The translations under genes were made by a program, and so were the position numbers. 64,000 bases of DNA from an uncultured delta proteobacterium (GTDB lineage Bacteria; Desulfobacterota; Binatia; Binatales; Binataceae): NCBI GenBank assembly GCA_963808235.1, contig CAWEEQ010000004.1, positions 2,944,001 to 3,008,000 of the forward strand, in the 5' to 3' direction. Every line of letters starts with the position of its first letter. Positions within the stretch are counted from its first letter, which is position 1. Under the pieces are notes generated by a model, which saw only the letters and a list, made by a program, of their open reading frames with translations, was not told where the DNA came from and searched no databases. Of this stretch, positions 1,998 to 19,498 are shown in pieces.

Positions 1998-2318
1998 GTG
2001 AAACGCCGCCACGCCGCTGCGCTCGCAATTGTGGGCTGGTATCTGATGATGCCGCCCGACTCCGCCAAAATCCCTCATTCGGTCGATTCGAGGGCGCCGC
2101 TCTCGCGCTGGATGATCGTCGCCACCTTCGACACTTCGGAAGCCTGCGAAAAGGCGCTCGCCGACATTCAAAGCAAGGAACGCGACCCGAGCGAACTCGA
2201 TACCACCGGGAAGCTCCGGCGCCTGAAGAAAGACCCGCCCGATCCTGCGTTGGGAATTTCGCGAGCGGTTAACTCCGGATGCGTCGAGAGCGACGATTTC
2301 CGCCTTAAGAAGAAATAG
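1998..2318 (+). CDS. small exported protein, 'VGWYL...DDxRL' family, copy 1
   Basis: GTG start after GGGGAA. N-terminus MKRRHAAALAIVGWYLMMPP, C-terminus CVESDDFRLKKK. Paralogous to 7109-7417 and 19010-19285. Confidence 0.8.
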   Translation: MKRRHAAALAIVGWYLMMPPDSAKIPHSVDSRAPLSRWMIVATFDTSEACEKALADIQSKERDPSELDTTGKLRRLKKDPPDPALGISRAVNSGCVESDDFRLKKK

Positions 2319-2340
2319 CCGACCGCGATACCCCCTCCGG

Positions 2341-2368
2341 TTGTCACTCTGAGGCCGCTTGATATAAT
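2341..2368 (+). promoter_or_regulatory. sigma70-type promoter (extended -10)
   Basis: TTGTCA, 16 bp spacer, TATAAT preceded by TGn; about 70 bp upstream of the hydrolase gene. Confidence 0.65.
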
Positions 2369-2436
2369 CGCCGCGAAGTCTAAGGGCCCGAAACAATAGC
2401 ACCGGACTGGTGATAGCTGGCGGAGACCGGGCGTTC

Positions 2437-4367
2437 ATGGAAGCTCAAACCAAGTACGCCAAGAGTGGCGATGTTCACATCGCGTACCGCGTCTTCGGCA
2501 GCGGCCCGCGCGACATCATACTGGTGCCGGGCACCGTGTCGCACGTCGAGCTCTACTGGGAGCTGCCCGCCAACCAGTATCTGCTGAAACGGCTCACCTC
2601 TTTTTCACGCGTAATCGTTTTCGACAAGCGCGGTCAGGGTCTCTCCGATCGGGTCGCCGACCAGACGCTCGAGGAGCGGGTCGGCGACGTGCTCGCCGTA
2701 ATGGACGCGGCCGGCTCCAATCGCGCCACCATCTACGGCTGGTCGGAAGGCGGTCAGATGTCGCTGAAGTTCGCCGCGACCTGTCCCGAGCGAGTCTCCG
2801 GCCTCGTCTTGTACGGCACCTATGCGTCGATCAAGCCGGCTCCGTGGGCCGTGAGTCCGGAGCGGTTCGAGCAATTCCTCGGGGCGCTGGAAGCCCACTG
2901 GGGTGAAGGCATCCTGGTCCGTCTTAATGCGCCCAGCCGCGCGAATGATAAGGCATTTATGAAATGGTTCGGACGACTCGAGCGCGCGGTCGCGAGTCCG
3001 AGCACGATCCTCGCCCTGATGCGCGCGAATTACGAAATCGACGTCGGCCATCTTCTCCCATCGATCCAGGTGCCGACCCTGATCCTCCATCGCATTGGCG
3101 ACTCGCTCGTTCCGGTCGAATGCGGGCGCTACCTGGCTCGTAATATCCCCGGCGCCAAATACGTCGAGCTAACCGGCGACGACCATCTGCTCCAGGCCAT
3201 GGATCAAGACGTGCTGGATATCCTTCTCGACAGTATCGAGGAATTCGTGACCGGCCGATGCCATCGCGCGGAGCAGGACCCAATCCTCTCCACGGAAGTA
3301 TCCGCCGACACGCTCGACTCCGCGACGCACGCCGCCCCAGCCATGGCCCGCGCGGATTGGGGAAGTCCAAACGAGGCCATCGCCGAACTCGAAAGATGCC
3401 GTGAGATTCTAGCTTCCGCAGAGGACGGGCGCGGGCTTGCCGCAGTGGTCGCGCGCGCTGAAGCGGTTGCCGCTGCGGCACGAGGTTCGTGGGAGGAATC
3501 GGAAGCACAATTCATCAAGGCCGCAGAGACCTTTCGACGCCTTGGTATGGTCTGGCAGGAGGCGCAGACGTTTCAAAGTTGGGGCCACGCCTTGCGCGCC
3601 GGCGTCGATCGTCACGCGGCGATCGAAAAGCTCGACAAGGCAATCGAGATCTATCGCAAGCACGGCGCGGATCAGAGTTGGATCGACAACGTCAAGGGCA
3701 ACTTCGCGCGCACTGACGGTACCAATGGTTCATCTGGAGCGCGCGCAGAAATCCCAAAACGGCCCGCCGCGCCCGAGGCAGTGTTTCGTCGCGAAGGCGA
3801 CTATTGGACGGTGACATGGGATGGGAACGTGGTCCGCCTCAAGGACGCCAAGGGCCTTCACTACATCTCCTACTTGCTCGCCAATCCCGGCCGGATGATC
3901 CTGGCCTGCGAACTCGCCGCAACTGGAAAGTCAAACGGCAGCGATCGTGGCGGCAACCGTCGTGATTCGATCGATCCGCTCGGCACCGCGCCAGACCTCG
4001 GCGATGCCGGCGCGATGCTCGACGCGAAGGCCCGCCTGCAATATCGCGCCCGCATCAGCGAGCTCGGCGAGGAAGTGGCGCAAGCCGCTCAGCTCAACGA
4101 CACCTTGCGCGCGTCACACCTGCGCTCCGAGCTGGAGTCGCTTCGCGAGCAGATTGTCGCCGCAGTCGGGCTCGGCGGACGAAACCGCAAGGCTGCGTCG
4201 CATCTGAACGGGCGCGCCTGATGGTGACCAAGGCAATCAAGGCCGCGATTGCGAAGATCCGCTCGAGCGACCCTGTGCTCGGCCGCTATCTCGCGACGTC
4301 CATCAAGACCGGCAACTGCTGCGCCTACGATCCCGGCCCTGACGCTCCCATCGCCTGGCAGTTGTAG
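2437..4367 (+). CDS. alpha/beta hydrolase fused to a TPR-like region and putative DNA-binding C-terminal domain (frameshift near 4203)
   Basis: YAKSGDVHIAY, FDKRGQGLSD and GWSEGG nucleophile motif. C-terminus FRREGDYWTV...KGLHYISYLLANPG...AVGLGGR continues in another frame as ERARLMVTKAIKAAI...SIKTGNCCAYDP...WQL* to 4367. Confidence 0.8.
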
Positions 4368-4557
4368 GACTCCGCGCGCCACGATTCGGCCCGCGCTTTT
4401 ATTTGTGCCGAGCGTCGGCACATCGTTCCCGTATTTTTCACGCTTCTAATGTTAGGAAGATTCGCTTTACCGGGCGGGAATAAGACCTGCCTTCGTGAAT
4501 CGCGGCAATGGTCTCGCGTTCGCACCGCTGGAAGCGCCTAACAGGGAGGAAGTAGTA

Positions 4558-5106
4558 ATGAAAAAAGTAGCGGCTCTGACTTTGCTGGCTGGGTGCATGA
4601 TCTTGGCCGGCGCGCACCCACGCGATCGCGCAGCCAGGACTCCACCGAGCCTCGCCCAGGTCGTGGTATTGGACGAATGCGATCCGACCACGTTCAACGC
4701 GGCGATTGGCCCTGACTTTTGCAAGAACGTCACGCTTGGAGCGTTTACCACGTTGTCCGATCTATTTGCAGGTGCGGAGGCTGGAACCCCCGATCCGGGC
4801 TGGGACTTCGAACCCGACACTTTGACGATCAAGCAGGGGACCATCGTTTCCGTGGTCGACCAGGGCGGTGAGCCTCACACCTTTACCGAAGTGAAAGCGT
4901 TCGGCAACGGATTCCTGCCGCCGCTCAACCCAGGCAGTGCGACGAGCGTTATCCCGGAATGCGCGGGCGGCTTTTCCACCGTCGCCGTGGCCAGGACCCG
5001 AATTCTTCAAGGCAGTCATCTCGATGTCGTCGGTCTCTCGAAGGGAAAGCATCTGTTCCAGTGCTGCATCCATCCCTGGATGCGCATGGAAGTCGACGTG
5101 AAGTAA
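4558..5106 (+). CDS. exported cupredoxin (type 1 copper) domain protein
   Basis: Signal-like N-terminus after GGGAGGA; GEPHTFT and CCIHPWM copper-ligand pattern. Confidence 0.8.
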   Translation: MKKVAALTLLAGCMILAGAHPRDRAARTPPSLAQVVVLDECDPTTFNAAIGPDFCKNVTLGAFTTLSDLFAGAEAGTPDPGWDFEPDTLTIKQGTIVSVVDQGGEPHTFTEVKAFGNGFLPPLNPGSATSVIPECAGGFSTVAVARTRILQGSHLDVVGLSKGKHLFQCCIHPWMRMEVDVK

Positions 5107-5236
5107 TCCGCACCGGAATGCACTCGCGTCTGAGGTGTTTGGAACAACCGGGCTCTCGATGGAGCCCGGTTGAATTAAGCGACATTTTGTATTACAGCGA
5201 GATTCGATAGAGACATTCCCGTGGGAGGGAAAGCAG

Positions 5237-6766
5237 ATGCGTCTGGGCCAAGTTGTCGGCTGTGGCGTGATTCTGTGCTTGGGGACCTTCTCCGCTAGCG
5301 TGTCGGCGCAATCGGATCCGCCCGGGATTCCCAAATGGGCTGCCGAAGTCCATCGGCTCGCCATGAAGGTTCATGACACCGGCCCCGCGAGCGATTCGAC
5401 GGGAATCTTTCCTTCTGTAATCCCGCAAGCCCTCCCTAATCCCGATCCCACCGGCGTGGTCGAGACCTTCAACACCGGCGCGCCAACCGACACCTCGTCC
5501 AATCCATTCTTCCAGAGTCTCGGGACCAACGGGCGCGCCTGCGCCACCTGCCATGAACCCCGCAGCGCATGGGGCGTCAGCGCAGCTTCCATTCAACAGC
5601 GTTTTGACGAAAGCAACGGCACCGATCCGATTTTCCGTCTGGTCGACGGCGCGACCTGTCCGAGCGATGACGTTAGCTCGCTCGCGGCGGAACGCGACGC
5701 GTACAAACTCCTGCTATCCAAAGGCCTGATCCGTATCTTCCTGCCGCTGCCCGCAACTCAACTCGGAACCGCGACACCCAGGGACTATGAAATCACCTCG
5801 GTCACCGATCCTTACGGTTGCACCACTCTGTCTTCGATCCCGCCGGTTATCTCGGTTTACCGGCGCCCGCTGCCATCGGCGAATCTGCGCTTCCTGATTG
5901 GTTGCCCGCCGGGTCAGACCACGTGCGCGCCGCTATCGATCATGTGGGATGGACGAGAGCCGTCGCTGCAAAGCCAGTCAATCGACGCAACGCTCGGCCA
6001 TGCGCAAGCGACGAGCAAACCCAGCGACCCACAAGTCGCGCAGATCGTGGCCTTTGAAACCGGCATCTTCGACGCGCAGGAATTCGACAACGACGCGGGT
6101 ACTCTCCATGCACGACAGGCAAGCGGCGGACCGGCGGCGCTCTCGCAGCAGCAATTCTTCATCGGAATCAACGACTCTCTCTCTCCCGGATTCACCTCCG
6201 ACATTTTCACCCTCTACGATCCATGGGAGAACCTCCCGCCGGACGGCCGCAACGCGGCACGCGCGTCCGTAGCGCGCGGAGAGATTTTGTTCGACACCAA
6301 GCCGATCACCATCAGCGGCGTGAACGGGCTCAACTTGTTTGCGAGCGATCCGCTCGGCGCGAACACGATCGTCGGTACCTGCGGCACCTGCCATGATTCG
6401 CCCAACGTCGGCAACCATTCGAAGAAGCTCGCGCTCAATATCGGGATCGCGGACGCGACTCCGCCGGTGCTCGACGTTTCCGGTTTGCCGGTTTTCACGG
6501 TGCAATGTACCGAGACCACCGGTCCGCTCAAGGGGCAGACGTTTACCGTGACCGATCTGGGCAAAGCGCTTATCAGCGGGAGTTGCGCGGATGTCGGAAA
6601 GGTGAAGGGACCTATTCTGCGCGGACTCTCCGCGCGTGCGCCCTATTTCCACAACGGCTCCGCCGCCACCTTCGACAACGTCGTGAATTTCTACGACCAG
6701 CGCTTCGGAATTGGTTTTACAGATCAGGAGAAGGCAGACCTGATAGCGTTCCTGCAGACGCTGTGA
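5237..6766 (+). CDS. exported di-heme cytochrome c peroxidase/MauG-superfamily protein
   Basis: Signal peptide, two CxxCH motifs (CATCH, CGTCH), MWDGRE, LRGLSARAPYFHNGS, EKADLIAFLQTL. Confidence 0.85.
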   Translation: MRLGQVVGCGVILCLGTFSASVSAQSDPPGIPKWAAEVHRLAMKVHDTGPASDSTGIFPSVIPQALPNPDPTGVVETFNTGAPTDTSSNPFFQSLGTNGRACATCHEPRSAWGVSAASIQQRFDESNGTDPIFRLVDGATCPSDDVSSLAAERDAYKLLLSKGLIRIFLPLPATQLGTATPRDYEITSVTDPYGCTTLSSIPPVISVYRRPLPSANLRFLIGCPPGQTTCAPLSIMWDGREPSLQSQSIDATLGHAQATSKPSDPQVAQIVAFETGIFDAQEFDNDAGTLHARQASGGPAALSQQQFFIGINDSLSPGFTSDIFTLYDPWENLPPDGRNAARASVARGEILFDTKPITISGVNGLNLFASDPLGANTIVGTCGTCHDSPNVGNHSKKLALNIGIADATPPVLDVSGLPVFTVQCTETTGPLKGQTFTVTDLGKALISGSCADVGKVKGPILRGLSARAPYFHNGSAATFDNVVNFYDQRFGIGFTDQEKADLIAFLQTL

Positions 6767-6881
6767 GCAACGACCGGAATTCCTGAAACCCAGGCACTTC
6801 CGGCGCAAAGAAAAAAATGGTCTGAAGGTAAATGTCGGGTAATAATAGTAAGAGCACAACCGCTGCCTGGAGGACCTTCCC

Positions 6882-7022
6882 ATGTCGCCACTCATTCTGA
6901 TCTTGATCCTGTTGCTACTCTTCGGCGGTGGCGGTGGTTATTACGCCTACGGACCCGCCGGCGGAATCGGCATCGGCGGAATTATTCTGATCATCCTGAT
7001 CGTGATGCTGGTCAGAAGGTAG
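6882..7022 (+). CDS. 46-aa glycine-rich small membrane protein (DUF3309-like)
   Basis: GGAGGA RBS; MSPLILILILLLLFGGGGGYYAYGPAGGIGIGGIILIILIVMLVRR*. Below the ORF-track size cutoff. Confidence 0.8.
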   Translation: MSPLILILILLLLFGGGGGYYAYGPAGGIGIGGIILIILIVMLVRR

Positions 7023-7108
7023 TCAAGCTTCGAGAAGCACTGCTGACTGCTTCCCTCGCCCGTCTGCTCGATAAGTGAGGGGACATCCGTGCGGCGCGTT
7101 CTCCGAGC

Positions 7109-7417
7109 TTAGTGCGGAGGCGGTGGCGGGTGATGCGGATGGCCCGGCCCTTCCTCGAGGCCGGGATCGTCGGTAGCGATACAAACCGCAAAGAGTACCG
7201 ATTGCAGGCCGGGTTCCGCGGACTCGCTTTTGGTAGCCGAATCGGCGGCGCGCTTCTTTACCGATGCGCGTTCCGCCTCGCATTCCTTGGCGGAATCAAA
7301 ACTCGACAAGATCTGCCAGCGGCGAAGCCCTTCAGTTTCACCGGGCGGAGACCCAGGCGGCGGAACCATCAGGTACCATCCCACAAGCGCAAGCGCAGCG
7401 GTATGCCGAATTTTCAT
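7109..7417 (-). CDS. small exported protein, 'VGWYL...DDxxL' family, copy 2
   Basis: MKIRHTAALALVGWYLMVPP...FDSAKECE...CIATDDPGLEEG plus a His/Pro tail. Confidence 0.8.
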   Translation of the reverse strand: MKIRHTAALALVGWYLMVPPPGSPPGETEGLRRWQILSSFDSAKECEAERASVKKRAADSATKSESAEPGLQSVLFAVCIATDDPGLEEGPGHPHHPPPPPH

Positions 7418-7460
7418 GGCGATGTTCCTACCACACTCATCGCCCGTCTGGGAACGCCCG

Positions 7461-7521
7461 CCCTAATAGCCTCGCCCTGACAGGGAGAGGCCGACGCTCG
7501 TCCCCGAGCGGCGGGTGAGGG
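7461..7521. repeat. REP-like palindromic element
   Basis: CCTCGCCCTGACAGGGAGAGG hairpin followed by CGCTCG..CGAGCG and GGGTGAGGG, a typical GC-rich REP layout. Confidence 0.6.
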
Positions 7522-7568
7522 TCCGCATTCCAAATTCCGCGCACACTAAACGTCATGCAAAGCTCTGA

Positions 7569-7969
7569 GTCGACGCATCGATCGCATTGAACTACGCCCA
7601 ATACAATTTCGTGCGGATTCACCGGACGCTGAGGATGACGCCCGCGATGGCCGCTGGCGTAACGGATCGGCTATGGTCCGTCGAGGATCTATTGGGGGCG
7701 GTTATATGACGGAAAGACAATTGTTCGGGGTGGTTGTTCGAGCGTTCGGCCTTTGGTCTATCGTTCTCGGTGTCTCCGCGATCCACGGGATCATACAGAT
7801 TTTCGGCGTTCGAACGATAAATAACTTTGATTGGCAACCGGCAGTTGCGTTTGCAGCCCTCTATCTTGCTGCCGGTCTTGTCGTACTGCGAAAGTCGGAA
7901 ATGATCGTGCAATTCGCTTACGTAACGGAAGGCTCCAGACCCCCTGGCAATTCAAATTAGGGTGCCACC
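7569..7969 (+). mobile_element. IS1-family-like element remnant: transposase 3' end, passenger ORF and putative right end
   Basis: 7569-7709 translates ALNYAQYNFVRIHRTLRMTPAMAAGVTDRLWSVEDLL*, which I recognise as the C-terminus of single-ORF IS1-like DDE transposases. TTCAAATTAGGGTGCCACC at 7951-7969 is the candidate end. Confidence 0.7.
7706..7960 (+). CDS. small two-TM membrane protein (putative IS passenger)
   Basis: ATG overlaps the transposase-fragment stop (ATGA). Two hydrophobic stretches; looks less GC-rich than flanking genes; stop codon lies inside the candidate IS end. Confidence 0.65.
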   Translation: MTERQLFGVVVRAFGLWSIVLGVSAIHGIIQIFGVRTINNFDWQPAVAFAALYLAAGLVVLRKSEMIVQFAYVTEGSRPPGNSN

Positions 7970-8049
7970 CGCCGATTCATGGGGCTAGCCCCTTCCATCA
8001 CGGCCTGATATTTTGGGTGGATCACTAAGAGGCGCAGGAACAAAATTCT

Positions 8050-8835
8050 ATGACTGAAATCTCCATGAAGCAGCTGCTCGAGGCCGGCGTCCATTTCGGC
8101 CATCAGACCAGCCGCTGGAACCCGAAGATGAAGCAATACATCTTCGGCGCACGCAACGGAATTTACATCATCGATCTTCAGCAGACCGTCAAGATGTTTC
8201 GCGCGACCTTCGATTTCGCACGCGACGTCGCCGCCGCCGGCGGCACGATGCTGTTCGTTGGGACCAAGAAGCAGGCCCAGGACATCGTCAAAGAGGAAGC
8301 CGAACGCTGCGGGATGTTCTACGTCAACAACCGATGGCTCGGCGGGATGCTGACCAACTTCCAGACTATCCGCGCCTCGATCGAGCGGCTCAAGAAGCTC
8401 GAAGAGGTGATGGCCGATCCGGAGATGATCCGCGCGCTCACCAAAAAAGAAATGAGCGACAACGCGCGCGATCACGAAAAACTGATGAGCAACCTGGCCG
8501 GGATCAAAAATATGCGCAAGCTCCCGGACGCGCTCTGGGTTATCGACACCAAGAAGGAAGATATCGCGGTCGCCGAAGCGAACCGGCTCGGTATCCCGGT
8601 CGCGGCGGTGGTCGATACCAACTGCGACCCCGATCTGATCGCTTATCGAATTCCCGGCAACGACGACGCGATCCGCGCAATCAAGTTGTTCACGGCGGCG
8701 GTCGCCGACGCGATTATCGAGGGCAAGCAAATCGCCGAAGAGCGCGCCAAGGGACAGCGCGACGGGGGCTCTGACTCGGGCGCCTCGAACGGCAGCGGCG
8801 CAAACGCGCCGGCGCCCGAATCGCCAAGCGTCTAA
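8050..8835 (+). CDS. rpsB: 30S ribosomal protein S2
   Basis: [32 protein letters not shown]. Confidence 0.99.
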
Positions 8836-8854
8836 GCTCTCGCGGTGCTAGCTG

Positions 8855-8911
8855 AATTGGTTCCCCACGCGCCGGGGGCGATTCCCTCGAGGGAAGGGGT
8901 TAGGGTCAGGT
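8855..8911. repeat. REP-like repeat, copy A (upstream of tsf)
   Basis: GCGATTCCCTCGAGGGAAGGGGTTAGG; nearly identical to 9626-9675 and related to 41600-41641. Confidence 0.7.
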
Positions 8912-8979
8912 AAGCGGAGCGCGATGGCCTTGCCTAAGACCGACTTCACAAACAATACTGGTCACGCTTAGGAATTCCG

Positions 8980-9594
8980 ATGGAAGTAAATTCGAATCTG
9001 GTTAAGGAACTGCGCGAAAAGACCGGCGCCGGCGTGATGGATTGCAAGAAGGCGCTCGCCGACGCCGCCGGCGATCTCGAAAAGGCGGTCGCCGCGTTGC
9101 GCGAAAAGGGAATGGCGGCGGTGGCCGGCCGCGAGGACCGCGTCGCATCCGAAGGATCGGTCGGTTCGTATATACATGCGGGCGGAAAGATTGGGGTGCT
9201 GATCGAAGTCAATTGCGAAACCGACTTCTGCGCGAAATCCGAAGCGTTCCAGGCGCTGGTGAAGAACCTCGCGATGCAGGTGGTGGGGTCGAGTCCGCGC
9301 TGCGTCCGCCGCGAGGAGATTCCCCCCGCCGTCATCGAGCAGGAGCGCCAGATCTTCGCCTCGCAGGCCGAAGGCAAGCCGCCCGCGGTGGTCGCCAAGA
9401 TCGTCGAGGGCAAGCTCGAGAAGTTTTTCAAGGAATCGTGCCTGCTCGAGCAGCCCTACGTGAAGGATCCAAACAAGACGGTGAACGACTTGCTGGTCGA
9501 GGCCGCGCTCCAGATGCGCGAGAAAATAGCGGTGCGCCGATTCGCCCGCTTCCAGTTGGGCGAAGCGCTCGAGGCCAAGTCCGGACCGGCCTAG
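8980..9594 (+). CDS. tsf: elongation factor Ts (short form)
   Basis: VKELREKTGAGVMDCKKAL, EVNCETDF, RRFARFQLGE. Confidence 0.98.
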   Translation: MEVNSNLVKELREKTGAGVMDCKKALADAAGDLEKAVAALREKGMAAVAGREDRVASEGSVGSYIHAGGKIGVLIEVNCETDFCAKSEAFQALVKNLAMQVVGSSPRCVRREEIPPAVIEQERQIFASQAEGKPPAVVAKIVEGKLEKFFKESCLLEQPYVKDPNKTVNDLLVEAALQMREKIAVRRFARFQLGEALEAKSGPA

Positions 9595-9625
9595 AGATGG
9601 AAGCGGCGGAACCACCCCCCCACGC

Positions 9626-9675: not shown

Positions 9676-9677
9676 AA

Positions 9678-10421: not shown

Positions 10422-10423
10422 TC

Positions 10424-11131: not shown

Positions 11132-11935
11132 ATGAAACCAGAACACCAAGTGGCAATCTCACTACCGCTAAACGACTTCCCAAATCTCTCTCTCGATCCG
11201 TCGCGGATGCCGCGTCATGTGGCCATCGTGATGGACGGTAACGGGCGCTGGGCCAAACGGCGCGGACTCTCCCGCCACGAGGGTCATCGCCGCGGCAAGG
11301 ATTCCGTCCGCGCGGTCGTCGACGCGGCTCGCGAGGTCGGCATCCCGTATCTCACCCTCTATGCGTTTTCGAGCGAGAACTGGGGACGGCCGACGACCGA
11401 AGTCAGCTTCCTGATGGGACTATTTCATCGCTATCTCATCACTGAGACCAAGCGCCTGATGAAGCGCGATATCCGCGTGGTGGCTCTGGGAGATACCGAG
11501 CGGCTGCCGCCGCGCGTGCGAGAGGCGCTCGCCAAAACTGTCGAGGCGACTCGCGGCAACACTGCGATGACGGTTGCGCTCGCGCTGTCCTACGGAGGAC
11601 GCCAGGATATCGTCAATGCGGCGCGAGCGATCGCGCGCGCAGTCGCCGACGGCGCGATCTCTCCCGATGAAATCGACGAGCAGCTCTTGGCGCGCGCACT
11701 CACCACCAGCGACCTTCCCGATCCCGATCTTTTGATTCGCACTTCTGGCGAGCTTCGCGTCTCGAACTTCTTTCTCTTCCAGCTCGCCTACACCGAGCTC
11801 TACTTCACCGACACCCTGTGGCCTGACTTCCGCGAGCGCGAGTTCTTAAGTGCGCTCGCCGCGTACCAACTTCGCGAGCGCCGCTTCGGCGCAGTCCCGA
11901 ACGGCACCGTCCAGCGCCTGCGTGCTCAGAACTAG
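11132..11935 (+). CDS. uppS: undecaprenyl diphosphate synthase
   Basis: PRHVAIVMDGNGRWA, YAFSSENW, DLLIRTSGELRVSNF. Confidence 0.97.
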   Translation: MKPEHQVAISLPLNDFPNLSLDPSRMPRHVAIVMDGNGRWAKRRGLSRHEGHRRGKDSVRAVVDAAREVGIPYLTLYAFSSENWGRPTTEVSFLMGLFHRYLITETKRLMKRDIRVVALGDTERLPPRVREALAKTVEATRGNTAMTVALALSYGGRQDIVNAARAIARAVADGAISPDEIDEQLLARALTTSDLPDPDLLIRTSGELRVSNFFLFQLAYTELYFTDTLWPDFREREFLSALAAYQLRERRFGAVPNGTVQRLRAQN

Positions 11936-12707
11936 GATTCTGACCGCGGCGGTTCTCCTGCCCGCGGTCCTGGCCGCGATCGTCTTCACGCCCAACTGGT
12001 TCTTCACCGCGTTCATCGCCGCGCTTGGACTATTCGGTCTCTACGAGATCGCCGCGATGACCGGGACGCTGAAGCTCGTCGCAATCCCGCTCTACGCGGT
12101 GGTCGGCGGAGTGCCCCTCTTCGGACTCCTTTACGGTGACGACCCAGGATGGTGGCTGCCCGCGATCATCATCGTCGTGATGCTCGTGCTGGTCGCGCGA
12201 ATCGCGCTCGCCGGACGCGACGGCGCGCCGAGTGTGCCCGCTCTCGCCTTCACCGGCGCCGCCTATGTCGGCGCGCTGTTCCCCTACTTCGCGATGCTTC
12301 GCAACCGGCCCGGCGGCGTACAACTGGTTATCGTTGTTGTGCTGCTCGCCGTCGCGAGCGACAGCGGCGCGTACTTCATCGGGCGTCGTTTCGGACGGAC
12401 CAAGCTCGCCGAGAATGTAAGTCCGCAAAAGACAGTCGAAGGAGCACTAGGCGGAATGCTCGCGACGATCGCGGCAGGTATGATCCTGTTCTCGATGCTG
12501 GCGTTGCCGTGGCGCTTGGGCGCGGTGGTATTTTTTTCGGCTATGATTTCCTTATTCGCGCAACTGGGCGACCTCGCCGGTTCCGCACTCAAACGCGCGG
12601 CCGGAGTCAAGGACTCGGGATGGATTTTTCCGGGCCATGGCGGGCTGCTCGATCGAACATGTTCCCTAGTCTTCGCGATGGTTTTCACCTACTATTGGTC
12701 ACGTTGA
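11922..12707 (+). CDS. cdsA: phosphatidate cytidylyltransferase
   Basis: SDSGAYFIG, SPQKTVEG, KDSGWIFPGHGGLLDR; GTG start overlapping uppS. Confidence 0.95.
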   Translation: MLRTRILTAAVLLPAVLAAIVFTPNWFFTAFIAALGLFGLYEIAAMTGTLKLVAIPLYAVVGGVPLFGLLYGDDPGWWLPAIIIVVMLVLVARIALAGRDGAPSVPALAFTGAAYVGALFPYFAMLRNRPGGVQLVIVVVLLAVASDSGAYFIGRRFGRTKLAENVSPQKTVEGALGGMLATIAAGMILFSMLALPWRLGAVVFFSAMISLFAQLGDLAGSALKRAAGVKDSGWIFPGHGGLLDRTCSLVFAMVFTYYWSR

Positions 12708-12784
12708 CGCGATCTCAGGGGCGGTGAAATAGTTTTCAAAATGCTTGGGCTGATCGCGGCCAGGAATCTCACCGGCAGGTCTTG

Positions 12785-14128
12785 ATGATACACTCGATTG
12801 TTTCCTTTGCGCTCGTCTTCGCGGTTCTCGTGGTTGTGCATGAGGCCGGGCATTTCGCGATGGCGAAGAAGGTGGGAGTCCGCGTTCTCAGATTCTCGAT
12901 CGGCTACCCGCCAAGGCTATTCGGAATTCGGCGCGGTGAGACCGACTATGCTTTGGGCGCAGTTCCGTTCGGCGGCTACGTTCGGATGCTTGGCGACGAA
13001 GTCGGCGAAAATGCGAAGCCCGAAGAGCTCACCGTCTATCTGCACGAAGTCGGGCTCGATCTTATCGGCGCCGCGCGTGAGCATGGACCGATCCACACCG
13101 GGTTGGAATTCGACGATGGGTTGCGCGCGATTGCGGATCGACTCGCGACGGCCAGTCCCGCAAGCGTAATCGGGCGCGACATCAAACCCGATGAAGCGCT
13201 CCTGGTAAACGAACTCCGCCATCAAGCCAAAGTTGAAGACGTAATTAAATCGCTCGCCGAGAAACCTCCGGCGGCGCTCCTGGAATCGTTCCGGCAGCGC
13301 GCGTTCCCGACCCAGTCACTTGGCAAGCGGGTGCTGATAGTGCTCGCCGGCCCGCTTGCGAATCTCCTGTTCGCGCCCGTGCTGCTCACCTTGGTTTTCA
13401 TGACGGGCGTGCCCCAGCTTTTACCGGTAGTCGGTAAGGCCACTAAAGATCTTCCCGCGGCAAAGGCCGGACTTCTCGCCGGCGACCGGATTTTATCGGT
13501 CAACGGTCAGCCGGTGGAATCGTGGGATGATTTCTCGCGGACGATCAAGGCTGGCGACGGTTCCCCGATCAAGCTCGAGGTCACCCGGACGCAGGCCGGT
13601 TCGAGCCAGCCCACGACGGTACTGATAACGCCGACCCGGCTCGATCAAAAGACAGTCTACGGCACCAGCGCGACGACCTGGGTTATCGGCGTTCAGCCGC
13701 GCGGCGATGAGATAACGAAGCACTACGGCCCATTCGGCGCGGTCAAAGAAGCCTGCACGACCGCGGTCGAAATGACCTCTCAGATGGTGCTTGGTATCGC
13801 CAGCATCGTAGCCGGCTCGGTTCCGGTTAAAGATGCGCTCGGCGGGCCGATCATGATCGCGCAGATGGCGGGTAAGGAAGCGCACGAGGGGTTTGCGAGC
13901 CTCGCGATGTTTACCGTAATGCTCAGCCTGAATCTTGGTATAGTAAATCTGTTGCCGGTGCCGCTGCTCGACGGAGGGCATCTGCTGTTCTTTGCTTTCG
14001 AAGGTGTGCGCGGGAAGCCGCTGGAACTTCGCTATCGGGAGATGATGCTCCAGGTGGGTTTATTTTTGCTAGTGGCGCTGATGGCGTTTCTGATTTTCAA
14101 TGACATCTCGCGTGTTGTGCAGGGTTAA
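12785..14128 (+). CDS. rseP: RIP metalloprotease RseP
   Basis: HEAGH, GGYVRM, PDZ domain, NLLPVPLLDGGH. Confidence 0.95.
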   Translation: MIHSIVSFALVFAVLVVVHEAGHFAMAKKVGVRVLRFSIGYPPRLFGIRRGETDYALGAVPFGGYVRMLGDEVGENAKPEELTVYLHEVGLDLIGAAREHGPIHTGLEFDDGLRAIADRLATASPASVIGRDIKPDEALLVNELRHQAKVEDVIKSLAEKPPAALLESFRQRAFPTQSLGKRVLIVLAGPLANLLFAPVLLTLVFMTGVPQLLPVVGKATKDLPAAKAGLLAGDRILSVNGQPVESWDDFSRTIKAGDGSPIKLEVTRTQAGSSQPTTVLITPTRLDQKTVYGTSATTWVIGVQPRGDEITKHYGPFGAVKEACTTAVEMTSQMVLGIASIVAGSVPVKDALGGPIMIAQMAGKEAHEGFASLAMFTVMLSLNLGIVNLLPVPLLDGGHLLFFAFEGVRGKPLELRYREMMLQVGLFLLVALMAFLIFNDISRVVQG

Positions 14129-14927
14129 CCGGCTGCTCGAGCAAGCGGCCGCGACGGGCCCGGTCCTGGGACTCGATACCTCCACTCAAATCGCAAGCCT
14201 CGCGATTGTTGCCGGCGGCCGGGTGGCCGGCTCGCGATCGCTCGCCCGTCCCCTGAGCTCGCACGCATCGTCGCTGCCCGGCGTCGTCGATGAACTCTTA
14301 TCGGTGTCGGGCTTGAAGATTCGCGACCTCAAAGCGATCGCGGTTGGAATCGGCCCTGGCTCGTTCACCGGTCTTCGTATCGGCCTCAGCTATGCCAAGG
14401 GAATCGCGATGGCGTCGGGGTGCGCGACGCTCGGCGTGCCCGGGTTTGACGCGATGGCGTTAACTGCGCTCGAGCGCGACAATATCGACTGCGGCCGGCT
14501 GGTCGCCGTCGTTGTGGATGCCCGCAAGGGCGAAGTCTACGCGGCCCTTTACCGGGTCGTGAAAGATGGGCTAGAGAAATTAACAGAGGAGCTGGTAGTC
14601 ACGCTCGAACACTTGGCATCGCGCATCACCGAGGACGTAACGTTCATTGGTGATTCAGGAGCGAAGGATGCGGCGGCCTTGATCGGCAAGCGGGGCCATA
14701 TGGTGGCGGTTTTCGAAACAGGAACGCTCGATTTGCGCGGAGTCTCGATCGCGGCGATTGGCGCCGCGCGGTTCGCCCGTGGCGAAATTGATCCGGCGGC
14801 TCTACTCGAGCCGCTCTACATCAGAACGCCGGACGCAACTTTCAAGCCCAACTTGAAGGGTCCGGCGCTCACTAGCACGGAGGGCGTATGGAGCATCGAG
14901 AGGAAGAACTCATTCGGCAGCATCTGA
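14100..14927 (+). CDS. tsaB: tRNA threonylcarbamoyladenosine biosynthesis protein TsaB
   Basis: LGLDTST, GPGSFTGLRIG, DARKGEVY, EPLYIR; start position uncertain. Confidence 0.93.
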   Translation: MTSRVLCRVNRLLEQAAATGPVLGLDTSTQIASLAIVAGGRVAGSRSLARPLSSHASSLPGVVDELLSVSGLKIRDLKAIAVGIGPGSFTGLRIGLSYAKGIAMASGCATLGVPGFDAMALTALERDNIDCGRLVAVVVDARKGEVYAALYRVVKDGLEKLTEELVVTLEHLASRITEDVTFIGDSGAKDAAALIGKRGHMVAVFETGTLDLRGVSIAAIGAARFARGEIDPAALLEPLYIRTPDATFKPNLKGPALTSTEGVWSIERKNSFGSI

Positions 14928-15118
14928 CCCACGACGAGGATTTGAGGGCCCTCTACGTCGAGCACCAGGAGCTCAAACGCAAGCTCGAAACCTTTAGAAG
15001 TAAACACTACCTGACCAACGAAGAGGAAATCGAAGAAAAACGAATCCAGAAGCTCAAGCTGGCCTCGAAAGATCGCATGATGGCGATCCTCGGGCGCTAT
15101 CAGCACGAGGCCCGCTGA
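14888..15118 (+). CDS. DUF465/YdcH-family small coiled-coil protein
   Basis: EHQELK...LT.EEEIE.KR.QKLKL..KD pattern; GGAGG RBS. Confidence 0.8.
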   Translation: MEHREEELIRQHLTHDEDLRALYVEHQELKRKLETFRSKHYLTNEEEIEEKRIQKLKLASKDRMMAILGRYQHEAR

Positions 15119-15155
15119 ACCACGGTCCCGGCCATGAGCGCGCGCACTCCACCGC

Positions 15156-15689
15156 ATGACAAGTCACACAATATCGGTCCTGGTAGAAAACGAATTCGGC
15201 GTGCTCGCGCGCGTGGCCGGGCTTTTTTCCGGCCGCGGATATAACATCGAGTCCCTCACCGTCAACGAGGATCCCCTCGACCCGACGGTGTCGAGAATCG
15301 TGTTGGTCACCAGCGGTGACGACCAGATCGTCGAGCAGATCAACAAGCAGCTCAACAAGCTGGTCTCGGTAATCAAAATTACGGACTTCAAGGACGTCGA
15401 GACGATCGACCGCGAGATGGTCATCGTAAAGGTCGCGGTCGACGAGCGCACCCGCTCGGAACTCGACTCGATCGTGACCGCGTTTCGCGCCCACGTGATC
15501 GATATCGGTCCTCGCGCGATCGCCGTCGAGCTGACCGGCGACTCGGAAAAGATCAAGGCGTTCATCTCGATCGTGCGGCCGCTCGGAATCAAGGAAGTGG
15601 TGCGCTCGGGCAAGGTCGCGATGGCGCGCGCGGTCCAGCCGAACACCGACAACAACAATAATGGCCGCCGTAAGCGCGACGCGGAATAA
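15156..15689 (+). CDS. ilvN: acetolactate synthase small subunit
   Basis: ISVLVENEFGVLARVAGLFSGRGYNIESL. Confidence 0.96.
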   Translation: MTSHTISVLVENEFGVLARVAGLFSGRGYNIESLTVNEDPLDPTVSRIVLVTSGDDQIVEQINKQLNKLVSVIKITDFKDVETIDREMVIVKVAVDERTRSELDSIVTAFRAHVIDIGPRAIAVELTGDSEKIKAFISIVRPLGIKEVVRSGKVAMARAVQPNTDNNNNGRRKRDAE

Positions 15690-15722
15690 TCTCAGCGCAG
15701 AACAACTCGGGAGAACATCGAA

Positions 15723-16739
15723 ATGAAGGTTTTTTACGACCGCGACGCGGACTTGTCCGCGCTCAAGGGAAAGAAGATCGCGGTCATTGGCTTTGGAAGC
15801 CAGGGCCATGCGCATGCGCTCAATCTGCGCGACAGCGGGATGGACGTATGCGTCGGGCTCGGCAAGACTTCCGCCTCGCGCGAAAAGGCAACTAAGCAGG
15901 GTCTCAAGGTCTTCGATACCGCCGACGCCGCAAAGCATGCCGACGTGATCATGATCCTGGTGCCCGACGAAATGGGCTCGGAGATTTACGACGCGGAGAT
16001 CAAGCCGCATTTGACCAAGGGCAAGTATCTCGCCTTCGGCCACGGCTTCAATATCCATTTCAAATTCATCAAGCCGCCGGCCGACGTGAACGTCTTCATG
16101 ATCGCGCCCAAGGGACCGGGCCACCTGGTCCGCTCCGAGTACGTTAAGGGGCGCGGCGTTCCGTGCCTGCTCGCGGTGCAGCAGGATCCCTCCGGCGACA
16201 CCGCCAAGGTCGGGCTTGCGTACGGAAGCGCGATCGGCGGCGGACGCGCGGCGATTATCGAAACGAGCTTCAAGGAAGAAACCGAAACCGACCTGTTCGG
16301 CGAGCAGTCGGTCCTGTGCGGAGGCCTTACCGAACTGATTCGCGCCGGCTACGAGACGCTGGTCGAAGCCGGCTACGCGCCCGAGATGGCTTACTTCGAA
16401 TGCCTGCATGAAGTGAAGCTGATCGTGGACCTGATCTACGAGGGCGGAATCTCCAACATGCGCTACTCGATCAGCAACACCGCCGAGTACGGCGACATGA
16501 CGCGCGGCAGCAAGGTGGTCGGCAAGGAGTCGCGTGAAGCGATGAAAAAGATCCTCGCCGACATCCAGTCGGGCAAGTTCGCCAACGAATGGATCGGCGA
16601 CTACAAGGCCGGGCTCCCGAGTTTCCGCGAGCATCGCAAGGAAGCCCAAAACCATCCGATCGAGGAAGTCGGCCGCAAGCTGCGCGCCTTCATGCCCTGG
16701 CTAGCCAGCGACCGCCTGGTCGACAAGTCGAAGAACTAG
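15723..16739 (+). CDS. ilvC: ketol-acid reductoisomerase
   Basis: [35 protein letters not shown]. Confidence 0.98.
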
Positions 16740-16783
16740 GCGGCTGTTAAAATAGTGGCCCGGTGGACGGACCTCTTCCGCTG

Positions 16784-16799
16784 ATGTACACTTGTGCAT
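16784..16799. promoter_or_regulatory. palindromic operator candidate for BrnTA
   Basis: ATGTACA-CT-TGTGCAT, a 6/7 inverted repeat 12 bp upstream of the toxin start. Confidence 0.45.
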
Positions 16800-16811
16800 A
16801 TTCGGACCGGC

Positions 16812-17084
16812 GTGGATTTTGAATGGGACGAGCGGAAGGCGCGGACGAATCTTCGCAGGCACCGGGTCGACTTCGCCGACGCAGCCACGGTTTTCGAGGA
16901 TGATCGCGCCGTGACGGTCGCTGACGAGGACTCGGATGAAGAACGCTACTCAACGATAGGCTTGGACGCGCTCGGCAGGGGGTTGGTCGTGATTTACACC
17001 GTGCGTGGCAAGCGGATTAGGATCATCTCCGCGCGACGAGCCACGCGGCGCGAGCGCGCGGAGTACGAGAAACGTGATTTATGA
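16812..17084 (+). CDS. BrnT-family toxin
   Basis: FEWDERKARTNLRRHRVDF...EERY...RIISARRATRRE. Confidence 0.92.
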   Translation: MDFEWDERKARTNLRRHRVDFADAATVFEDDRAVTVADEDSDEERYSTIGLDALGRGLVVIYTVRGKRIRIISARRATRRERAEYEKRDL

Positions 17085-17362
17085 AACGCGAATACGATTT
17101 CAGCAAGGGCAGGCGTGGTCCCGTGGTGCCACTCGAGCTGGGCAAGACCAGGATCACAATCCGGCTGGACAACAAAGTTCTCGATCACTTCCGCAAGCGC
17201 GTCCATGAAATGGGCGGTGGCAACTATCAGACCCTCATCAACGACGCGCTTCGCGAGCACATCCGACGCGGCGGCATCGAGGCGGCAGTTCGTCGCGCCG
17301 TGCGCGAGGAGTTGAAGGACGCGGGCCTCAAACGCGCCGCAGGCAATGGCGGGCGAGACTGA
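17081..17362 (+). CDS. BrnA-family antitoxin
   Basis: EYDFSKG, KTRITIRLD, NYQTLINDALR; ATGA overlap with the toxin. Confidence 0.92.
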   Translation: MKREYDFSKGRRGPVVPLELGKTRITIRLDNKVLDHFRKRVHEMGGGNYQTLINDALREHIRRGGIEAAVRRAVREELKDAGLKRAAGNGGRD

Positions 17363-18045
17363 TAGTGGACGCCCTCAGCCGGGCGCCGTGATTGGGCGAA
17401 TCGCGCGCGCGATCGGAATCGCTGCGGAAGGCGCGATGCTGTCGTTAGGATTGGCCGCTGCCGGAATCGTCCTCATCGTGCTCGGGCTGAAGATCGTCGG
17501 CGCGATCGTTGTCCTGATCGCGTTGCCAATAGCGCTCTTCTTTCGCGATCCGGATCGCTTCCCCACCAAAACCGAAAATGTCGTGATTTCCGGCGCTGAC
17601 GGCAAAGTCACCGACGTCTCCGAGGTGCCGTTTCCCGGCGGAACCGGCCAACTCTACCATCGCGTGTCGGTCTTCATGTCGCCGCTCAACGTTCACGTCA
17701 ATCGCGCCCCGGTCGGCGGCGAAGTCACGATGGTCGAGCACACGGCGGGCGAGTTCCGCGCCGCGTTTCGCGACGACGCGAGCGAGCACAACGAGCGCAA
17801 TATGATTGCGATGACCGACGCCCAGGGACGCATCTTCGCGATGATCCAGGTCGCCGGATACCTCGCGCGGCGGATCATATGCCGGCTGCGCGCCCATGAT
17901 AGAATACAAGCCAGGGCAGCGGATCGGCCTGATCATGTTCGGAAGCCGGGTGGATCATTTCTTCCCGTCCGAATATCGGGTCACGGTCGCAGCCGGTCAA
18001 CGGGTCCGCGCCGGAGTGACGATTATCGGAGACGTCGAGCAATGA
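17346..18045 (+). CDS. psd: phosphatidylserine decarboxylase (frameshift near 17912)
   Basis: FFRDPDR, ADGKV, FMSPLNVHVNRAP, NERN. Continues in another frame as GQRIGLIMFGSRVD (pyruvoyl FGS motif) to TGA at 18045. Confidence 0.9.
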
Positions 18046-18979
18046 GCCGCAATTCACGCCGCTCGCGCGAAGAACGCGCACGGATGGAAATGATCACGGG
18101 CGAGGTCGCGAGCAGGGACGCGCACCAGAACCGTTCCGCAAACCGGACAGCGCGATTCGCCGCGGCGTCTACCTGGTTCCCGCCACGATCACGTCGATCG
18201 GCCTGCTCTCGGGCTTCTACTCGATGGTCTCCGCGGTGACGGGCCACTTCGAGGTGGCGGCGGTGATGATCATCATCGCGTTCGTGTGCGACGGCCTCGA
18301 CGGTCGCATCGCGCGCGCGTCGCGCACCTCGAGCCAGTTCGGCGTCGAGTACGACAGCCTGTCCGACGTGGTCGCGTTCGGCGTGGCGCCGGCGATGCTC
18401 GCATTCTCGTGGGCGCTCAAGCCAATAGGCTCGCTCGGAATCGGCGTGGCCGGACTCTTCGTGCTGTGCGCTGCGCTGCGATTGGCGCGCTTCAACGTCC
18501 AGACCGCGAGCGCGGACAAGAGCCGCTTCGTTGGATTGCCGGTGCCAGGCGCGGCAATCATGATCTCCGGACTCTCGCTCGCATATAGCTACTTCGAGCT
18601 CGATTCGCCGCGCACGCTATGCACCCTGATGGTGCCGATCACTCTCGCACTCGGCGGCCTGATGATCTCGCGGGTACCCTACCCCAGCTTCAAAACGATC
18701 AAACTCGAAAAGCGCGCTCAGGTCGAAGTGGTGATCGCGATGATGGTGTCCGTGGCAATGCTGGTCGTCATGTTCCATCTCACCGCCTTCCTGCTCTCGA
18801 CCGCTTATGTGCTCTCGGGGCCCGCGTTGATGCTGCGTGGCGAACAGATGAGCGCCAAGGTCCCGGTGCTGCGTCCGGTCGCTGCGGCAAAACCGCAAGA
18901 CGCAAATGGCAGTGCGCCCGGCGCCGCCGCTGCTCGACGCACCGGCAGCCTGCGCGAGCATCCACCGGAGCATCGATAG
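18042..18979 (+). CDS. pssA: CDP-diacylglycerol--serine O-phosphatidyltransferase (frameshift near 18157)
   Basis: DGLDGRIAR, FGVEYDSLSDVVAFGVAP, LRLARFN. N-terminal RRGVYLVP lies across a frameshift from ATG 18042. Confidence 0.9.
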
Positions 18980-19009
18980 AATCGCGCTCGGTTTGGGGGG
19001 ACTGACGTA

Positions 19010-19285
19010 ATGAATCTGCGCCACGCAACTGCGCTCGCGCTTGTGGGCTGGTATCTGATCGTGCCTTCCAAAGAGGAGAAACCACCATACTGGGCGGGCA
19101 CGGGCGAGATGTTTATGGACCAACGAGACTGTGAGAAGGCGGCGGCTCGCTTACGGCAAGACGCCTACGGCCAGTCGGCTGTAGATCATGCCCAATCAGA
19201 TCAAGACGCTTTAGAGCAGGCGCTCACTATTTGGCAAATGGAGAATGCCGCGTGTTCCGACGATCCGCGCCTCAAAGGAAATTAA
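19010..19285 (+). CDS. small exported protein, 'VGWYL...DDPRL' family, copy 3
   Basis: MNLRHATALALVGWYLIVPS...FMDQRDCE...CSDDPRLKGN*. Confidence 0.8.
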   Translation: MNLRHATALALVGWYLIVPSKEEKPPYWAGTGEMFMDQRDCEKAAARLRQDAYGQSAVDHAQSDQDALEQALTIWQMENAACSDDPRLKGN

Positions 19286-19337
19286 GACACTCGCGTTTTC
19301 AAATTCAGACACTCAACCCCAAATTAAGACAGCACCC
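19279..19337 (+). repeat. three tandem degenerate copies of AAATT(A/C)AGACA
   Basis: AAATTAAGACACTC (19279), AAATTCAGACACTC (19301), AAATTAAGACAGCACCC (19321). Confidence 0.75.
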
Positions 19338-19382: not shown

Positions 19383-19391
19383 CCATACACT

Positions 19392-19475: not shown

Positions 19476-19498
19476 CAAGCCTGATTAAACTGAGACAC

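Follow-up and report, generated by a model that had tools for sequence, protein, structure and literature searches.

Within a 64,000-nucleotide (nt) stretch of an uncultured Candidatus Binatus genome (GCA_963808235.1, contig CAWEEQ010000004.1, positions 2,944,001 to 3,008,000; hereafter the window), three small open reading frames (ORFs) resemble one another at both ends and sit at or near the housekeeping genes rho, rpsB, pssA and leuA. An earlier note took them for an expanded, undescribed family of exported, disulfide-type mini-proteins, spread as cassettes or as passengers of insertion sequences (ISs) and possibly diversified by recombination between constant ends. The question raised by this locus is which of these descriptions holds for the family as a whole. 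We consider it probable that the three ORFs belong to a Binatia-specific family of exported single-domain proteins, that its members are old paralogs, and that a subset of them lies in IS1-like-derived units at promoters.

Copy 1 (1998-2318, + strand; 106 amino acids plus stop) has a GTG start, with an alternative GTG at 1989, and its upstream neighbour is rho (509-1927). Copy 2 (7109-7417, - strand; 102 amino acids plus stop) is inverted relative to rho and rpsB, and its start lies 633 nt from rpsB (8050-8835). Copy 3 (19010-19285, + strand; 91 amino acids plus stop) lies between pssA (18224-18979) and the promoter of leuA (19609-21195). The ORFs described in the earlier note, with their translations, shared blocks and neighbours, were all reproduced. 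Copies 2 and 3 align to copy 1 at 36-37% identity, and R4, H5, A8, L9, A10, V12, G13, W14, Y15, L16, P19, F44, C50, E51, C95, D99, D100 and L103 are invariant in all three; in copy 2 the C-terminal motif has decayed to DDPGLEE and the tail is Pro/His-rich. The reported match of the 5′ block at the DNA level was confirmed, copies 1 and 3 differing at four positions of the stretch that runs from CGCCAC to CTGAT (37 of 41 nt identical, counted by hand), as was the position of the copy 3 stop codon (TAA, 19283-19285) inside the 12-mer AAATTAAGACAC (19279-19290). The statement that the segments between the ends do not align proved right for the loop between helix 1 and helix 2, the only paralog-specific part, but not for the rest of the middle, where APLxxW, W38 and FD..xxCE are common to the three copies.

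A hidden Markov model (HMM) built from the three ORFs recovered 13 intact copies from the window's own genome (G000; Candidatus Binatus, 4.59 Mb in four contigs, 60% G+C), all at E ≤ 4e-8. Ten of these lie beyond the three ORFs (E 6e-19 to 4e-8), and the next match follows only at E 0.11; because the model finds ten further copies and then meets this gap, the resemblance among the three ORFs is far beyond chance. A second round added a frameshifted copy in two overlapping ORF pieces (C4:1255821-1256238, - strand), and a leader-only remnant of 15 codons (MNLGHAAALALVGGY, followed by a stop) is present at C4:570974 (- strand). Of the other genomes sampled from the genus, all 18 matched, with 2-24 matches each; the genus-wide counts take in the unpublished genome G018 and, in part, the unpublished G035. 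In a class-wide sample, 41 of 151 genomes matched, including six of six from the genus and 13 of 17 from the same family, and copies were patchy in five other families (1-4 copies). With clustering at 50% identity, an exhaustive profile search of a public protein collection returned 4755 clusters, of which 2403 had E ≤ 1e-10. In a word-indexed collection, we obtained 1841 matches among the 8000 candidates scored; the few named by organism were Candidatus Binatus or Binataceae, and the remaining names were 'hypothetical protein' and one DUF2135-type label. These results indicate that the family is confined to Binatia and expanded in Binataceae and Candidatus Binatus.

We found no described relative of the family. 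Pfam held no family for the three ORFs at E ≤ 1, and 133 members gave two stray matches (E 0.004-0.01). The sole NCBIfam match of the ORFs was a chance one at 12 bits, PHROGs and PADLOC gave none, a sequence profile search of the PDB gave none at E ≤ 1, and the ESM Atlas returned unnamed Binatota clusters only, with no usable named cluster. The listed titles and abstracts on Binatota, Binatia, Candidatus Binatus and Binataceae contain nothing on this family, and in the main Binatota genome paper the words paralog, transposase, signal peptide and insertion sequence are absent from the article text (PMC8262859). The view of an expanded and undescribed family thus withstood the searches. Family genes also occur in tight tandem pairs or in clusters of three to five, for example at C3:44680-45300 (- strand) in the window's genome, where the spacer of the pair is 10 nt, at C10:654689-656663 in G011 and at C2:1653360-1654625 in G017. 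Some database proteins of 300-420 amino acids (P0124, P0257 and P0258) are read-through fusions of such tandems. Most of the 13 longer or fused forms that we found are domain tandems or arise by read-through from tandem genes; a foreign Pfam domain, PsbP_2, is present in a single one. Among the neighbours of the 13 loci in the window's genome, there was no conserved neighbour gene.

An alignment of 133 sequences defined the domain. W14, P19, W38, C50, C95 and D100 are invariant, and M1, R4, H5, A8, L9, L11, V12, G13, Y15, L16, P20 and, in the second half, P34, D99, P101, R102 and L103 are conserved in at least 90% of the sequences. The domain runs from G13-W14 (GWYLMxPP) to DDPRLK, and residues 1-12 (MKxRHAAALALV) form a leader ahead of it. 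Its elements follow in the order strand 1 (GWYLMxPP), strand 2 (APLxxW), a helix starting from the invariant Cys50, the paralog-specific loop, a second helix, strand 3 with the invariant Cys95, and the DDPRLK end. AlphaFold2 prediction on this alignment, a check proposed in the earlier note, gave three strands and helices with a predicted local distance difference test (pLDDT) value of 83 and a predicted template modelling (pTM) score of 0.70. The predicted strands span residues 14-18, 39-44 and 94-97 and the helices 47-62 and 83-91, and residues 101-104 form a short helix; only the stretches 1-10 and 61-80 are predicted with low confidence. Foldseek found no match in the PDB at E ≤ 0.001, the best being eIF4E at E 2. 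ClpS (2w9r), MzrA (4pwu) and the SPOR domain of DamX (2lfv) resemble the predicted fold in having a three-stranded sheet on two helices, but at Z 3.2-3.9, a root-mean-square deviation of 4.4-5.2 Å and 7-12% identity. MzrA and DamX are also membrane-tethered periplasmic modules. Since such Z values fall within the range of unrelated matches, no kinship to these proteins can be claimed.

The sequences of family members and relatives suggest that the domain is exported. Of 228 family proteins with a length of 80-125 amino acids, 216 have an even number of cysteines (196 have two, 20 have four). In P0263, P0266 and P0268, a classical cleavable signal (..AFA|G or ..ALA|G) precedes two tandem domains that start with (G)W(Y/H)L(M/L)xPP and end with C.(P/A)(S/T)(N/D)D; L156 and L173 have lipoprotein signals ahead of (W)LLMVPP or WYMMVPP; and in P0264 the leader MNPRHAAALALVGWYLMM serves as the signal for a PsbP-like domain that is followed by the family domain. 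In G087 and G052, which belong to another Binatia family, an SLT lytic transglycosylase domain (PF01464, E 1e-24) is fused C-terminally to the family domain, which makes up the N-terminal ~100 residues of these proteins of 253-254 amino acids (L184 2482-3240 and L185 23-784, both - strand). Relatives with Sec or lipoprotein signals before the domain, a leader shared with lipoproteins (see below) and even cysteine counts are the grounds for the export reading, and the idea of exported, disulfide-type mini-proteins is borne out to this extent. Each domain probably holds one periplasmic disulfide, Cys50-Cys95. Leader and strand 1 together are the sole hydrophobic segment of the standard single-domain form and would supply a hydrophobic export signal or membrane anchor. 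Our best guess at the biochemical role is a binding module in the periplasm that is tethered to the membrane and may act on peptidoglycan or on enzymes of the cell wall.

We examined the age of the copies through their orthologs in relatives. In 13 of the 19 relatives that could be assessed, a family copy follows rho at a distance of no more than 1.5 kb. The order in relatives is rho, zero to two family copies and rpsB, and in G033 and G014 rho and rpsB are adjacent with nothing between them. The 13 copy-1 orthologs share the whole core (PPDSAKIPHxVDSxAPLSRW...QDPIxLDKTGKL...ALGKARA.NA.CV.SDD.RLK), and the ratio of nonsynonymous to synonymous substitution rates (dN/dS) among them is 0.23 overall and 0.16 in the loop. 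As the core is kept among orthologs in this way, it marks paralog identity. Copy 1 is an old syntenic gene linked to rho, and the variable core reflects the divergence of old paralogs, each under purifying selection, and not hypervariation. The family would have grown by old duplications, each paralog then being kept by purifying selection.

Copy 3 has a different history. No family ORF was found at the pssA loci of 24 relatives, 21 of which span pssA-leuA. Of 16 pssA-leuA intervals, 12 measure 245-299 nt, compared with 633 nt in the window's genome, and contain nothing beyond the pssA stop codon, a few bases and the promoter and leader of leuA; the other four hold other small-ORF inserts, two of which end in the same type of motif. 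This comparison of filled and empty sites, which the earlier note had called for, establishes copy 3 as a species-specific insert. Four soil DNA runs yielded short contigs with little depth, none of which bridged any of the three copies so as to reveal a filled or empty site. These contigs contained two odd joints between the 3′ end of copy 3 and the start of a family gene, which probably come from tandem copies in related strains. The leuA gene itself is preceded by a classical leucine attenuator (19353-19549), with a promoter (TTGACT 19353-19358, TAGAAT 19377-19382), a Leu-rich leader ORF of 27 codons (19392-19475; MFCNLLPELLLSLALT...) and a G+C-rich hairpin with a T-run at about 19501-19549. 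This arrangement is kept in the intervals of 16 relatives and had no Rfam match.

The end of copy 3 coincides with the start of an element of about 60 nt (19279-19337, + strand) made of three direct repeats, R1 (19279-19291, holding the stop codon), R2 (19300-19313) and R3 (19320-19337); it is the best match of our element model R1 (E 2.9e-19). The consensus of nine elements, CAAATTAAGACACTCGC..TTTCAAATTCAGACACTCAG.CCCGAATTAAGACAGTACC, shows direct repeats with a period of about 21 nt, and its last repeat agrees with the IS end described below at 13 of 16 positions (hand count). The exact 12-mer is no dispersed motif, since the genome contains it a single time; only the degenerate three-repeat element recurs. 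The element model found matches in 25 of the 26 genomes sampled from the genus, each of these 25 having 1-13. The window's genome has four elements: two come after family copies, namely copy 3 and the one at C4:3249704, and two follow small ORFs with N-termini resembling the family leader.

We then surveyed the neighbourhood of the best 58 places outside G000 and G035, which hold 60 elements. For 24 of the 60, the ORF directly ahead of the element matches the family HMM (E<1e-5), although in L148 and L179 this match is limited to the leader and the rest has the look of a BamE-type lipoprotein. Upstream of 37 of the 60 lies a 28-nt leader block, CGCCACGCAGCCGCGCTCGCGCTTGTGG (≤6 mismatches), mostly 235-390 nt away, a distance that leaves room for a single ORF only. 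The same block is found in copy 1 (2007-2034, +, 4 mismatches), copy 2 (7381-7408, -, 6 mismatches) and copy 3 (19019-19046, +, 2 mismatches). It is also found on lipoproteins with a lipobox (L129, L131, L134, L143, L158, L161 and L172), on membrane proteins, and in L132 on a mini-ORF of 14 codons, whose stop codon comes immediately behind the block. Both L158 and L132 hold two units in an array. Of the 24 family copies in G017 and G004, 7 are followed within 120 nt by a 14-mer resembling the IS end. A subset of copies forms units of roughly 300-480 bp, consisting of the near-constant leader block, an ORF body and the 3′ element: copy 3, about a third of the copies checked in G017 and G004, and those at 24 of the 60 elements. 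The same ends also flank unrelated exported-protein genes such as those of lipoproteins, and the units differ between species at what appear to be the same sites.

The IS to which these units appear related is IS1-like. As noted earlier, a transposase remnant lies close to copy 2, 89-170 nt from its start. It is a C-terminal piece (about 7506-7709, + strand, ending in NYAQYNFVRIHRTLRMTPAMAAGVTDRLWSVEDLLGAVI before the stop codon) with one TGA interruption, and its 106 amino acids alone matched no family. In relatives, the full-length transposase is a single ORF of 293-318 amino acids. Two of these proteins best match the NCBIfam IS1 model NF033558 (E 2e-13 and 2e-17; 51 and 64 bits, cut-off 100), and the full-length relatives reach 19.6-20.1 bits against PF03400 (DDE_Tnp_IS1; cut-off 24.1). 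The right end TCAAATTAGGACACTACC directly follows the transposase stop codon in 9 of 10 IS loci. L100 carries an inverted pair, GGTAGTGCCCTAAATTT ... AAATTAGGACACTACC, 1.84 kb apart; this inverted copy identifies TCAAATTAGGACACTACC as a terminal repeat, and the terminal inverted repeats of the IS begin with GGTAGTG. In the pssA-leuA interval of G015 (L050), a minimal IS scar, GTAGTGCCCTAAGGACACTACC, joins the start of a left end to the tail of a right end and is flanked by a 9-bp direct duplication, GAGCCGTTG (n=1); it sits in the 16-nt spacer between the cassette element and the leuA -35 hexamer. A target duplication of 8-9 bp is typical of IS1. The inverted repeats of L100 and the single G015 scar therefore agree with IS1, as do the best model matches, whereas the scores below the curated cut-offs, the single transposase ORF and a small hydrophobic ORF between transposase and right end in two copies set this IS apart. 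In the window, a hydrophobic ORF of 95 amino acids (7673-7960, + strand) occupies this passenger-gene position, between the transposase remnant and a degenerate right-end motif (TCAAATTAGGGTGCCACC, 7952-7969, + strand, read by eye) 80 nt upstream of rpsB; it matched no family, Pfam DUF2243 at E 0.0076 being below the cut-off. L100 has a hydrophobic open frame of ~100 amino acids in the matching position, from transposase remnant to right end.

IS1-like transposase matches occurred in 24 of 26 genus genomes, many with full-length frames (~300 amino acids or more). The window's genome has five, and two of the five lie within 1 kb of a family copy, compared with 0.03 expected. The earlier note's proposal that the family spreads as cassettes or IS passengers was upheld in part: copy 3 is a species-specific insert, and its motif belongs to an element related to the IS1-like right end, but the element accompanies only 2 of the 13 copies, and copy 1 is old and syntenic. 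Copy 2 is part of a block of about 5.7 kb (2410-7960) that lies between copy 1 and rpsB here but not in relatives, where rho, any family copies and rpsB fit into about 1-2 kb. Besides the inverted copy 2, the IS1-like remnant and the small hydrophobic ORF, the block has genes for an alpha/beta hydrolase (2410-4221) and a di-haem cytochrome c peroxidase/MauG-like protein (5237-6766); it is probably an IS-mediated insertion or inversion. Just past the 3′ end of copy 2, and opposite to it in orientation, is a 46-codon ORF (6882-7022, + strand) for a very hydrophobic Gly/Leu/Ile-rich mini-protein (MSPLILILILLLLFGGGGGYYAYGP...), read by eye.

Many elements and ISs share a position relative to promoters. 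Among 34 elements whose last repeat could be placed, 21 have TTG 14-18 nt past the element end, compared with 6% in controls, and 16 have it exactly at +16; the full pattern TTGNNN-N16-19-TANNNT follows 9 of the 34, compared with 0.1% in controls. Behind copy 3, 15 nt separate the end of R3 (19337) from the leuA -35 hexamer. IS right ends have TTG at +16/17 in 5 of 11 cases. The sequence downstream of a full-length IS (L102, G033) is nearly the same as that downstream of a cassette element (L135, G005), and the two appear to occupy one orthologous site. At three further sets of loci (L129/L132/L133/L143/L162, L141/L154 and L136/L146), the downstream sequence is near-identical while the bodies differ from species to species. 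The 14 nt that separate element and -35 hexamer in G005 are also present at the empty sites of G007, G013 and G002, so this spacer is native. We read the spacing to TTG as a target preference common to the IS and the units; a preference for a site ~16 nt before TTG is not known for IS1. The units would then be IS1-like-derived, non-autonomous cargo elements or fixed remains of them, with a preferred site just upstream of promoters. We infer the mobilising mechanism, and the units may be fixed remains. A more far-reaching version, which we regard as rather doubtful, is that an IS1-like system places its right end and cargo units ~16 bp upstream of -35 hexamers and so sustains a genus-wide pool of secretion-ready cassettes, distinct from integrons, in which bodies are slotted between one constant signal-peptide-coding block and one constant three-repeat end.

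The main rival to the target-preference reading of the TTG spacing is a regulatory role of the repeats. Under this alternative, the element is a cis-regulatory module of three protein-binding sites ~21 bp apart, in fixed phase to the next -35 hexamer, comparable to tandem response-regulator sites, and its likeness to the IS end is secondary, for instance through binding of one protein by both or through mimicry of the site by the IS end. The sharpness of the spacing, the complete sigma-70-like promoters behind 9 of 34 elements, the direct repeats with their regular period and the near absence of an inverted left end from the units would all fit such a module. However, the 12 relatives with a short pssA-leuA interval have a leuA promoter that works in the absence of the element, and the element came together with an ORF. 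Moreover, full IS ends have the same spacing, one of them seemingly at the site of a cassette; the G015 scar with its 9-bp duplication lies exactly in the 16-nt spacer; and the downstream genes (leuA, rpsB, ileS and others) are unrelated. We therefore consider a purely regulatory element unlikely.

Recombination-driven diversity, the last proposal of the earlier note, appears similarly improbable. In this scenario, homology at the leader block and at the constant 3′ end (C-terminal block plus three-repeat element) would allow ORF bodies to be exchanged between loci or with a genus-wide pool, giving variable exported proteins like those of paralogous surface-protein families in pathogens. Conservation of the ends at the DNA level is real, as the earlier note had observed for the 5′ block, most synonymous positions included. 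Among the 13 paralogs, the codon identity at same-residue positions was 0.51 in the N block and 0.56 in the C block, compared with 0.36 and 0.46 expected from genome codon usage, whereas the middle showed no excess (0.40 vs 0.43). Among the copy-1 orthologs, the synonymous substitution rate (dS) was 0.39 in the N block, about half the 0.74 of the whole gene. Body exchange would also explain why leader block and 3′ element flank lipoproteins, membrane proteins and a 14-codon mini-ORF, and why seemingly the same promoter-proximal sites hold different bodies. Against it, the cores of orthologs are conserved under purifying selection, as described above, and neither end is homogenised within genomes. 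For 37 copies from G000, G017 and G004, after removal of pairs with >50% protein identity, the 210 pairs from a single genome had an N-block identity of 0.682 and a C-block identity of 0.662, and the 446 pairs from different genomes had 0.686 and 0.665, respectively. On these equal values we rejected ongoing gene conversion between the paralogs and found no concerted evolution; together with the orthologs' conserved core, they do not support the proposal that the core was diversified by recombination between constant ends. In addition, the copies are mostly single, complete and dispersed, no expression locus with silent copies was seen, and 11 of the 13 copies in the window's genome are missing the 3′ element. 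The constant leader block and 3′ element around unrelated ORF bodies nevertheless leave some room for end-mediated exchange. The synonymous excess of the ends may reflect a DNA-level role of the block. Six 78-nt folds of the conserved 5′ block gave no signal of RNA structure (z -1.39 to +0.45), and Rfam over positions 1-21000 yielded one chance match only, below the gathering score.

It is highly improbable that the proteins are cytoplasmic, with the N block as a strand plus interaction motif and the two cysteines metal-binding or redox-active: the hydrophobic WYLMM is predicted as a strand of the fold at pLDDT >90 and the leader is too short and too conserved (R4, H5, A8, L9, L11, V12 and G13 at ≥90%) for an ordinary signal peptide, but cleavable Sec or lipoprotein signals directly before the domain in relatives, the same leader on lipoprotein precursors with a lipobox, even cysteine counts and the fusion to a periplasmic SLT domain argue otherwise.

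We compared the proposed IS1-like-derived units with known mobile systems. The nearest known kinds are mobile insertion cassettes (MICs), transporter ISs (tISs) and one-ended mobilisation by an IS; integron cassettes are also close. MICs and tISs are IS-derived units with passenger genes (PMC3913671, PMC5444012, PMC9330008). Like these, the Binatus units are small, lack a transposase, carry one passenger ORF, end like the terminal repeat of a resident IS and vary in presence among related genomes, and a full IS in the genus could act on them in trans. The Binatus units thus have the MIC combination of a passenger gene, no transposase inside and a matching autonomous IS in the host group, but not the IS-type inverted repeats at both ends, an inverted left end being found at 2 of 49 leader blocks only. 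They further differ in that their right end has three direct repeats, where the full IS has a single terminal motif; that their left border is a constant signal-peptide-coding block; that they keep a fixed distance to -35-like hexamers; and that their mobility is putative.

Integron cassettes share with the Binatus units small ORFs, a conserved 3′ site that may hold the stop codon, occasional arrays (L158, L132) and products that are diverse, mostly unknown and often exported. There is also a recombinase remnant beside one family copy. This copy, at C4:3249704, lies upstream of ileS in a locus (L004 5441-6709; C4:3249440-3250708) that includes a truncated tyrosine-recombinase N-terminus, whose best, weak match is the integron integrase TIGR02249 (E 6e-6). 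Two direct repeats of 116 nt (5511-5626 and 6494-6609, 96% identical) enclose the family copy and the recombinase remnant, and the repeats are flanked by perfect palindromes of the type GTGAAACCTTTCAAAGGTTTCAC, of which the genome has 4-7 copies. The repeat-bounded segment looks like the remains of an integrated element. In contrast to integron cassettes, the Binatus 3′ site consists of direct repeats and not of the imperfect inverted repeats of attC. No GTTRRRY core or inverted cores could be read in the consensus of nine elements, and we found no intact integrase or attI; attC with a nearby intI/attI platform is thus lacking, and L004 alone adjoins a truncated recombinase. The Binatus units are also dispersed promoter-proximally, with a constant 5′ coding block that integron cassettes lack.

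Variable lipoproteins of Mycoplasma and paralog families of Borrelia combine conserved leaders with variable bodies. The Binatus family is likewise multi-copy, and leader DNA conserved at synonymous sites is common to divergent mature proteins. It differs from these systems in having stable orthologs and a free-living soil host, and we saw no expression site with silent copies and no invertase sites.

Several observations weigh against the reading that we prefer, namely an exported Binatia family of old paralogs with a subset in IS1-like-derived units. In the window's genome, only 2 of 13 copies carry the 3′ element and 11 are without it. Only 2 of 49 leader blocks have an inverted left-end-like motif (≤2/15 mismatches) in the 90 nt ahead of them (controls, 0 of 2000), so most units are unlike two-ended transposable cassettes. 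On this count we rejected a two-ended structure, that of a miniature inverted-repeat transposable element or a MIC, as a general rule; within 800 nt, 4 of the 60 elements have a credible left-end match at ≤3 mismatches. The candidates for a target duplication around copy 3 (GGTTT, GACTG..) are unconvincing, and the fixed TTG spacing is equally compatible with a regulatory site for the downstream promoter. The preferred reading does not account for the synonymous excess in the ends of the paralogs. On the protein side, no clear cleavage site can be made out in the canonical leader, which has only a short hydrophobic stretch (~13 residues), so the topology is one that we infer. The SLT fusion is limited to two genomes of one genus, and a wide structure search with VIA-align returned generic alpha/beta domains with a best Z of 3.9, a fold match that is uninformative.

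Overall, the large undescribed family of probably exported mini-proteins is real, and so is the link of a subset of its members to IS1-like ends at promoter-proximal hot spots. The family is very large, with 4755 clusters at 50% identity and up to 24 copies per genome, and its hosts form a soil lineage that is common worldwide but uncultured. The family has neither a name nor a structural relative, and the domain borders and probable exported location provide a usable starting point for its study. If the units are not mobile, the family is an ordinary lineage-specific paralog family with some adjoining IS scars. If they are mobile, they would represent a new way of distributing secretion-ready genes and a promoter-proximal target choice by a bacterial IS. 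The genomic side of the family, with its leader block, IS-end-like element unrelated exported-protein cargo and fixed promoter distance, could outweigh the protein side in importance.

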